From IMG/VR virus record IMGVR_UViG_3300037067_024426: a stretch of DNA of 64,000 bases; one strand, given 5' to 3'. Source of the stretch: a virus. The notes below the pieces were generated by a model. The model worked only from the letters and a program-made list of their open reading frames with translations, made no database searches and was not told the origin of the DNA. This document shows positions 18,095-18,168 of this stretch, piece by piece. Numbering within the stretch: the first letter of the stretch is position 1; every line of letters starts with the position of its first letter. The translations under genes were made by a program, and so were the position numbers.

Positions 18095-18168
18095 TGCCCC
18101 TGGCAGGATTCGAACCCGCTGCCCAGCGTTTTTAGAGAACGCCTGCTCTACCGATGAGCTACAGAGGC
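18095..18168 (-). tRNA. Predicted amber-suppressor tRNA (anticodon CUA)
   Basis: The acceptor is GCCTCTG/CAGGGGC. The D arm is GCTC-ATCGGTA-GAGC. The anticodon hairpin is GCGTT-CTCTAAA-AACGC, with U33 and A37. The T arm is GCGGG-TTCGAAT-CCTGC. One extra nucleotide is present (a 6-bp anticodon stem or a 2-nt linker). No CCA is encoded. Confidence 0.55.

Follow-up and report, generated by a model that had tools for sequence, protein, structure and literature searches.

The stretch of viral DNA analysed here, the 64,000-nucleotide (nt) IMG/VR record IMGVR_UViG_3300037067_024426 (called the window below), contains at positions 18095 to 18168 of its minus strand a tRNA gene with the anticodon CUA, tRNA(CUA). 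Eight tRNA genes were found in the window, all on the minus strand; seven of them form an array at 53-1603, and tRNA(CUA) stands alone between the genes for a peptidyl-tRNA hydrolase of the PTH2 family and an MVP-like protein. The sequence examined comprised 84 kilobases (kb), namely the window and 10 kb on each side (loci L019 and L024), and the pairing of PTH2 with suppressor tRNAs was followed into other huge phages. The features around the tRNA gene are the following:

18095-18168, minus strand: tRNA with the anticodon CUA (amber-suppressor type), class I (ARAGORN, Rfam, minimum-free-energy fold, strain comparison)
18169-18202, minus strand: A+T-rich spacer of 34 nt from the PTH2 stop codon to the tRNA 5' end (sequence)
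18203-18523, minus strand: PTH2-family peptidyl-tRNA hydrolase of the archaeal/eukaryotic type, 106 amino acids (aa) (Pfam PF01981, 43.7 bits, cut-off 23)
18520-19002, minus strand: ECF-type sigma factor, 160 aa (Pfam Sigma70_r2 and r4_2; ATG in a TAATG overlap)
15367-18027, minus strand: MVP-like protein, 886 aa, with shoulder and repeat domains (Pfam MVP_shoulder, 8.2e-30)

Structure of the tRNA

ARAGORN places the tRNA at 18094-18168 with the anticodon cta at position 34 and the default label 'tRNA-Pyl', and the Rfam family RF00005 matches it over its full length at 18095-18168 with 52.4 bits (gathering score 29; E = 2.2e-08). The initial annotation, which was made from the letters alone, had predicted an amber-suppressor tRNA at this place. 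The two programs agree with it on the CUA anticodon, and the strand is minus.

Written 5' to 3' the RNA is GCCUCUG UA GCUC AUCGGUA GAGC A GGCGUU CUCUAAA AACGCU GGGCA GCGGG UUCGAAU CCUGC CAGGGGC A, with GCCUCUG/CAGGGGC as acceptor stem, GCUC-AUCGGUA-GAGC as D-arm and GCGGG-UUCGAAU-CCUGC as T-arm. The tRNA has the canonical G18G19 and T-loop (UUCGAAU) and A73 as discriminator; CCA is not encoded, and the cloverleaf is the minimum-free-energy fold. The elements on which the prediction had been built, a canonical cloverleaf with a TTCGAAT T-loop, a GCTC/GAGC D-stem and the loop CUCUAAA with U33 and A37, are all borne out. The extra nucleotide suspected near the anticodon stem is real as well, appearing in the minimum-free-energy fold as a sixth stem pair (G.U) and, by the Rfam alignment, inserted behind position 26. 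The anticodon loop CUCUAAA has 7 nt, with C34 U35 A36 preceded by U33 and followed by A37 and A38. A36-A37-A38 is a context typical of tRNAs for codons starting with U, and judged from its sequence the loop is suited to the reading of UAG.

Among the other tRNA genes of the window, tRNA-Asn(GUU) at 730-816 (minus strand) is 87 nt long and has a 13-nt insertion in its variable region when aligned by Rfam, which is unusual for class I.

Gene neighbourhood and conservation among strains

The MVP-like gene lies directly downstream of tRNA(CUA) on the same strand and ends with TAG here. In a scan of the spacers between the sigma factor, PTH2, tRNA and MVP genes no promoter-like or terminator-like sites were found, which together with the common strand suggests that the four genes are probably co-transcribed. 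PTH2 and the suppressor tRNA, 34 nt apart on the same strand, form a cassette as defined here by a distance of up to about 4 kb. The PTH2 gene starts with ATG AAA CCG CCT AAA (MKPPKLYVVV...) and has no internal stop. The profile of the phage PTH2 homologues matches the Pth2 structure 2zv3 of the PDB (E = 5.7e-11) and also 1q7s and 1rzw, and in the profile alignment E78, an invariant acidic residue, and T86 align with the archaeal enzyme.

A megablast search with 8 kb around tRNA(CUA) yielded no match among GenBank phages, and the exact tRNA sequence had no match in IMG/VR and JGI metagenome contigs. Close relatives were reached via the homology of the MVP protein. These are L018, a 165-kb contig with an MVP 93% identical to that of the window, and L115, where the MVP is 90% identical; in both, PTH2 has the same start codons as in the window and is free of stops. 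In L115 tRNA(CUA) is unchanged in 74 of 74 positions. In L018 it carries six substitutions, which include a compensatory exchange of G7-C66 for A7-U66 and a strengthening of U4.G69 to C4-G69, and the anticodon arm is wholly invariant between L018 and the window. As the tRNA is unchanged or compensated while the flanking proteins diverge by 5-20% between these three strains, it is being kept by selection.

The order sigma factor, PTH2, suppressor tRNA, MVP is found in L018, L115 and also in L116, a more distant relative (MVP 59% identical) with a plain-start PTH2, a tRNA(UUA) just upstream of MVP and a transfer-messenger RNA (tmRNA) gene 1.8 kb downstream; neither ARAGORN nor Rfam found a tmRNA in the window. 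In L002 and L003 (58% identity in MVP; contigs 216 and 392 kb long) PTH2 lies on the other side of MVP and is followed after 27 nt by a long-arm tRNA(CUA), and PTH2 itself contains two in-frame TAG codons, with no other start possible. The same slot in the lineage is thus occupied by different suppressors, a UUA tRNA in L116 and a type-II CUA tRNA in L002, and its being refilled with differing sequences and anticodons points to repeated selection for a suppressor rather than to decay.

Some observations concern the MVP-like protein itself. It has more than 6000 homologues, many of them on contigs of 200-460 kb, and a large group of huge phages apparently has it as a hallmark protein. The homologue at L002:10001-12617 has its first approximately 130 codons in another frame, with an overlap near 10407-10414, and ATA where its relatives start with ATG; a frameshift, an error of assembly or initiation of a non-canonical kind may be the cause. 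In-frame 'ATG TAA' mini-open reading frames, possibly by chance, stand just upstream of three genes of the window (18058-18063, 46613-46618, and 14384-14389 on the minus strand), which encode MVP, a 1470-aa protein and, at 13790-14371, a 193-aa open reading frame (ORF) whose L018 counterpart has an HNH domain.

Genetic code of the window phage

Contigs with exact copies of window proteins were found in many samples, and two of them add about 112 kb on the left side of the window and about 76 kb on the right, which puts the phage genome at about 250 kb or more. Among the products of the window genes are a family A DNA polymerase, the helicases DnaB and SNF2, two sigma factors, a Dam methylase, two DnaJ-like proteins, a tail fibre with collagen repeats and several very large proteins, and the window has a G+C content of 41%.

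Gene sets were derived by a simple greedy ORF procedure with a 'new coverage' test and no trained gene finder. This replaced a measure in which coverage was computed from stop-to-stop ORFs for alternative sets of stops, where the noise was too high to tell codes apart. With the greedy set the coding density of the window came to 0.952 under standard stops, as against 0.947 if TAG was read as sense, and the two 10-kb flanks behaved in the same way, with no gain from TAG as sense. The 69 window genes end with TAA (28), TGA (28) and TAG (13), so that TAG is indeed used as a stop, as the initial annotation had it. Three TAG-terminated genes had been named there and were correctly identified, the MVP-like gene and the following two:

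116-694: HNH endonuclease, TAG stop at 116 (PHROGs)
9504-10427: sigma factor (sigma-70), TAG stop at 9504

Genes with an in-frame TAG, which had been considered possible elsewhere in the genome, were not found in the 84 kb, including the genes for proteins as large as the collagen-like tail fibre (1328 aa) and proteins of 1546, 1470, 1005 and 2300 aa. In the window there were also no genes split by TAG and no short ATG-x-TAG leaders; two early-TAG extensions that had come into question, at 62302-63663 and 38700-39347, were rejected since the upstream sequence is non-coding. Between strains that carry the tRNA, at least four genes (MVP, 10587-10922, 12304-12768 and 23932-24189) have TAA in place of TAG and one has TAG in place of TAA. 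As the two codons swap across strains with the same tRNA, TAG behaves as an ordinary, exchangeable terminator. No release-factor or aminoacyl-tRNA-synthetase genes were seen among the annotated genes. In the sampled third of the genome the density does not rise, TAG is not depleted and G+C is not low, as would be looked for in a code-15-like reassignment. Reassignment of TAG in the window phage is not supported, and the code of the sampled 84 kb is the standard one. A parallel with phages that have partly recoded TAG had been drawn at first; it does not apply to the window but holds for related huge phages, where sparse, position-conserved stops occur.

PTH2 and suppressor tRNAs in huge phages

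Searches with PTH2 profiles led to 13 and later to 80 IMG/VR loci. With four complete huge phages from GenBank and the mycobacteriophage Myrna the survey comprised 66 distinct PTH2 genes, in loci of 8 kb each, and suppressor tRNAs were counted only inside this span. Nearly all PTH2 homologues had a suppressor tRNA on the same strand at a distance of 0-4 kb, and the tRNAs were confirmed by Rfam. The pairing occurs in about 45 phages besides that of the window, with suppressors of class I as well as class II, and CUA is the commonest anticodon in the loci (52 of 343 distinct tRNAs). As a control served about 330 kb of MVP loci without PTH2, where none of about 47 tRNAs was a suppressor.

Another finding was that about 47 of the 66 PTH2 genes contain an in-frame TAG, usually at codons 3-6. 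Forty-one start with ATG, one to five codons and TAG, and in six more the TAG is slightly later or internal. GGAG is found about 7 nt before the ATG in many of the TAG-leader genes, and no ATG, GTG or TTG occurs between TAG and the conserved core (I/V)KEGDKLYVITR. In L035, where PTH2 has no TAG, a sense codon occupies this position (M-A-T-IKEGD), from which it follows that the upstream ATG is the true start.

The early stop and the tRNA go together. A tRNA(CUA) within 4 kb, nearly always downstream and on the same strand, accompanies 39 of the approximately 47 TAG-bearing PTH2 genes but only one of the 20 without TAG, which is that of the window lineage (39/8 vs 1/19, Fisher's exact p = 1.5e-9, or p = 6e-5 with the automatic classes only, values that overstate independence as kinship was reduced by the removal of identical PTH2 sequences and nothing more). 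The match extends to other stop codons. In L078 (3950-4400) PTH2 begins with ATG GCT TAA AAC..., an ochre gate with a tRNA(UUA) 311 nt downstream, and an opal case is found in L063, where PTH2 (4001-4330) has an internal TGA and a tRNA(UCA) lies nearby (7641-7714). L027 combines an amber leader with a tRNA(UUA); UAG, by the wobble rules, is likewise read by a UUA anticodon.

Several of the loci have a tmRNA gene 1.3-1.7 kb upstream of PTH2 (Rfam). As a side observation, L030 holds a Thg1-like tRNA-His guanylyltransferase (534-1331), a tmRNA (2284-2638) and a full-length IF3 (7062-7601) in the same locus as PTH2 and the suppressor, in the manner of a translation-control island. Beside some ungated PTH2 genes (L035:5740-5893; L064, L098, L068) there are tRNA-like genes for which ARAGORN gives 'anticodons' of 4 or 2 nt (ttca, tc, ct); their anticodon loops have 8 or 6 nt, and they may be opal or quadruplet decoders. 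In Myrna (L045, 33036-33593) the PTH2 homologue gp84 is preceded by GTG TAG GTG; it was set aside as ambiguous, the spacing of the ribosome-binding site favouring the GTG after TAG. Gene 86 of Myrna, 130 nt downstream of PTH2 and annotated as tRNA-Ser, has the anticodon CUA according to ARAGORN.

Other genes with premature stops

There is no global recoding in the relatives. Within the 8-kb survey loci TAG interrupts long ORFs no more often than TGA or TAA. The complete phage LR756500.1 (462 kb, 24% G+C) has 26 tRNAs and a tmRNA, and its only tRNA(CUA) is found 776 nt downstream of a TAG-bearing PTH2 (MK-TAG-INNHKL...). Its coding density is 0.903 with the standard code vs 0.901 with TAG as sense, and TAA, TGA and TAG serve as stops 513, 90 and 30 times. 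Besides PTH2 only one convincing in-frame TAG was seen in this genome, at codon 51 of a 137-aa gene at 394639-395049 on the minus strand (L124:44639-45049; ..GTAIRNN-TAG-GLWNKE..). A 371-aa ORF with TAG at codon 26 was discarded as a further candidate since a GIY-YIG-like protein starts downstream of the TAG.

A second family with an early stop is phrog_14850 (about 190 aa, with a weak HD-domain match), encoded beside PTH2. An M-x(1-4)-TAG leader is present in 16 of its 17 matches, which are 49-88% identical and come from L030-L034, L038, L043, L048, L056, L060, L069 and L081 (e.g. L030:3394-3990); the window has no homologue. In L004 (9974-10030) the MVP gene has TAG at codon 5, M-A-E-Y-TAG-N-N-N-Y-D as compared with M-A-R-Y-D-D-D-Y-D in relatives, so that the stop falls within an N-terminal stretch of clear homology, and no tRNA was found inside 10 kb. 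The picture in the relatives is one of sparse, position-conserved premature stops that would be readable only by the phage's own suppressor.

Interpretation

The reading preferred here is that tRNA(CUA) is a functional amber suppressor and part of the local, ungated copy of a PTH2/suppressor cassette of huge phages, and that it suppresses only partially while TAG stays unreassigned. This we consider rather likely, with considerable room for doubt. It is suggested by the maintenance of the tRNA, the refilling of its slot by different suppressors and the conserved linkage to PTH2, which together argue for a functional suppressor and not a relic. The tRNA would be expressed, charged and active in suppression.

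In this cassette one or two suppressor tRNA genes come after a PTH2 gene, and a tmRNA gene is often close by. In most of the relatives the PTH2 message begins with AUG, one to five codons and a stop matched to the tRNA (usually UAG with CUA, but also UAA with UUA and UGA with UCA), and PTH2 and phrog_14850 would be completed only if the suppressor wins over the release factor at this early stop. The purpose of such a coupling may be to tie the recycling enzyme, and in some phages the neighbouring tmRNA, to the level of read-through or to weak termination by release factors. As the stop stands at the extreme N-terminus, any inserted amino acid should be tolerated, which matches the varied types of suppressor tRNAs, and a failed attempt should cost merely a di- to pentapeptide. 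Extended to huge phages in general, this would amount to a circuit in which the suppressor gates PTH2, phrog_14850 and occasionally other genes via a matched amber, ochre or opal stop at codons 3-6, senses the level of termination and suppression and switches on ribosome-recycling functions, the code being otherwise standard; the window phage, in this view a descendant without the gate, would use the tRNA otherwise, for instance on messages of the host or a rival. We put this general proposal forward tentatively, at a little less than even confidence. An alternative for the leaders themselves is that they are mini-ORFs after which translation re-initiates at the AUU or GUU behind the stop. The codon after TAG is indeed mostly ATT, GTT, ATC or ATA, but AAC, GGC, AGC, ACA and AAA also occur, of which AAC, GGC, AGC and AAA are not start codons, and re-initiation would leave the ochre and opal stops with their matched tRNAs unaccounted for.

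In the window phage tRNA(CUA) would most likely compete with release factor 1 as a partial suppressor. Its clients might be a few genes outside the 84 kb, messages of the host or of competitors, or both, and ordinary TAG stops with low-level read-through could also serve. The co-expressed PTH2 would then clear peptidyl-tRNA from aberrant termination.

Several findings weigh against this interpretation. Within the 84 kb no client codon for tRNA(CUA) was found, the remaining approximately 170 kb lying outside the sample. PTH2 of the window, like that of L116, is a variant without the premature stop, and the cassette logic of the relatives can therefore not be shown in the window phage. In addition eight TAG-bearing PTH2 genes of the survey have no tRNA(CUA) inside 4 kb. 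As to the tRNA itself, the anticodon stem is unusual with its extra nucleotide or sixth base pair, and the closest of the 343 tRNAs match it in only about 57 of 74 positions and differ among themselves in amino-acid identity, so that there is no neighbour informative of its amino acid. The lysine motif GKGK of archaeal Pth2 is replaced by PGYQ in the alignment with the phage PTH2 profile, and hydrolase activity of this divergent phage enzyme is therefore not assured.

The strongest competing explanation, which we regard as unlikely but serious, is a sparse or late-gene recoding in which the tRNA decodes in-frame TAG codons outside the sample, for example in capsid, terminase or lysis genes. 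Recoded phages do keep the standard code in replication genes and carry their in-frame stops in late genes (bioRxiv 10.1101/2021.08.26.457843), the unsampled part of the genome is large, and relatives have sparse TAG codons in PTH2, phrog_14850, the MVP of L004 and the 137-aa gene of LR756500. Against it stand the large structural-type genes of the 84 kb, which are free of in-frame TAG, the use of TAG by 13 of 69 genes at 41% G+C with free exchange of TAG and TAA across strains, and the absence of release-factor and aminoacyl-tRNA-synthetase genes from the annotated set.

That the tRNA is an inactive relic, either an anticodon-mutated sense tRNA or a suppressor left without clients and persisting without function, is improbable. 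The lack of a client in the 84 kb, the missing PTH2 gate as compared with most relatives and the odd geometry of the anticodon stem would fit a relic, and the tRNA(CUA) genes of the phage XacN1 are likewise without identified targets (PMC5852040); a tRNA unchanged or compensated, with an invariant anticodon arm, in strains with 7-10% difference in the flanking proteins, and a slot filled repeatedly by different suppressors would not.

Still less probable is a programmed C-terminal extension, in which the tRNA reads particular TAG stops of the window to give longer isoforms. The initial annotation had suggested that read-through might extend the three genes named above. This is not supported, as the HNH extension runs into a tRNA-Thr gene, which overlaps the stop codon, and only 9 and 10 codons would be added to the sigma factor and MVP; the MVP stop, moreover, is TAA in both L018 and L115, where the same tRNA is present. 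Other arrangements look more suggestive. The DnaJ gene at 30436-31536 ends with TAG, which is followed at once by ATG in frame with 31537-32019, the ORF at 8856-9260 (134 aa) is in frame with 8469-8816 (115 aa) over 13 stop-free codons, an AAA ATPase would gain 69 codons, and these arrangements are kept in near-identical strains. However, a TAGATG junction is in frame by necessity, a stop-free spacer of 13 codons has a probability of about one half by chance, and the conservation of the DnaJ and 8469-9260 arrangements is uninformative since the strains are 99-100% identical in those genes. The AAA ATPase keeps its TAG, but the extension behind it has 69 codons in one strain and 37 in another; with this and with at least four TAG stops, that of MVP included, being TAA in relatives with the same tRNA, no conserved extension is left. 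As a separate observation, read-through of the DnaJ TAG (J domain, zinc finger and C-terminal domain; 30436-32019, plus strand) would fuse to it a 160-aa ORF without a family match.

A pyrrolysine tRNA, finally, can be dismissed almost entirely: the CUA anticodon and a possible 6-bp anticodon stem would fit, but ARAGORN gives this label to every CUA tRNA, tRNA-Pyl lacks G18G19 and the T-psi-C consensus and has a short D-loop and a 3-nt variable loop, whereas here G18G19, a UUCGAAU T-loop, a 7-nt D-loop, 2 nt between acceptor and D-stem and a 5-nt variable loop are present, and no domains of pyrrolysine biosynthesis or PylRS were found among the annotated genes.

Relation to known systems

Suppressor tRNAs are known from recoded phages (crAss-like, Lak, Agate, Jade; bioRxiv 10.1101/2021.08.26.457843; PMC9523058), and standard-code relatives of these occasionally carry one (bioRxiv 10.1101/2021.08.26.457843). 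The window phage resembles them in encoding a tRNA(CUA) amid translation-related genes with standard-code surroundings, in a host that presumably uses the standard code. It differs in that TAG ends about 19% of the genes, G+C amounts to 41%, no in-frame TAG turned up in the 84 kb with their structural genes and the conserved partner is PTH2 and not a release factor or an aminoacyl-tRNA synthetase. XacN1, a cultured jumbo phage of Xanthomonas, has the standard code with 18 amber stops and two tRNA(CUA) for which no targets were found (PMC5852040). It shares with the window phage the standard code, the tRNA(CUA) and an encoded peptidyl-tRNA hydrolase, but its suppressors are in tRNA arrays of the terminal repeats and not beside Pth. 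The Pth of XacN1 (ORF295) was considered as a cultured example of the gate and rejected, as its start is plain and it falls into another, longer subfamily. PTH2 is common in jumbo phages according to Iyer et al. (PMC7824862), whose survey deals with the same family and mentions neither adjacent suppressor tRNAs nor premature stops. No literature was found in which PTH2 is connected with suppressor tRNAs or premature stops in PTH2 are described, subscription journals being largely uncovered by the search.

Two classical systems are comparable in part. The prfB gene for release factor 2 is autoregulated by an early in-frame UGA that is passed by a +1 frameshift, so that weak termination yields more full-length product. 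In PTH2 of the relatives, too, the fate of an early in-frame stop would set the output of a termination or recycling factor; prfB differs in using a frameshift and in making a release factor, whereas the PTH2 leaders would need a suppressor tRNA and the product is a hydrolase, and PTH2 of the window has no such codon. The bar minigenes of phage lambda are mini-ORFs of two to four codons that release peptidyl-tRNA, which is recycled by Pth. If not read through, the PTH2 leaders of the relatives would be bar-like mini-ORFs, but bar has neither an in-frame hydrolase fusion nor a paired suppressor tRNA.

tRNA(CUA) itself adds one more case to a known kind of tRNA; what appears to be new is the conserved cassette with its stop-codon gate. 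Suppressor tRNAs of phages have so far been explained by stop-codon reassignment, and no explanation has been at hand for those of standard-code jumbo phages such as XacN1. In the window locus and about 65 related ones the conserved partner of the suppressor in huge phages is PTH2, which would usually be untranslatable without it. Gene callers working with code 11 systematically truncate or miss the TAG-bearing PTH2 genes. A sparse regulatory use of stop codons without genome-wide recoding is suggested, which would be a possible intermediate on the way to a change of the code.

Other observations on the window

Further minus-strand genes of the window code for a type IV pilin-like protein that has an N-terminal methylation motif (2108-2461), a dual-specificity phosphatase (11284-11775) and an RRM-domain protein (12827-13285).

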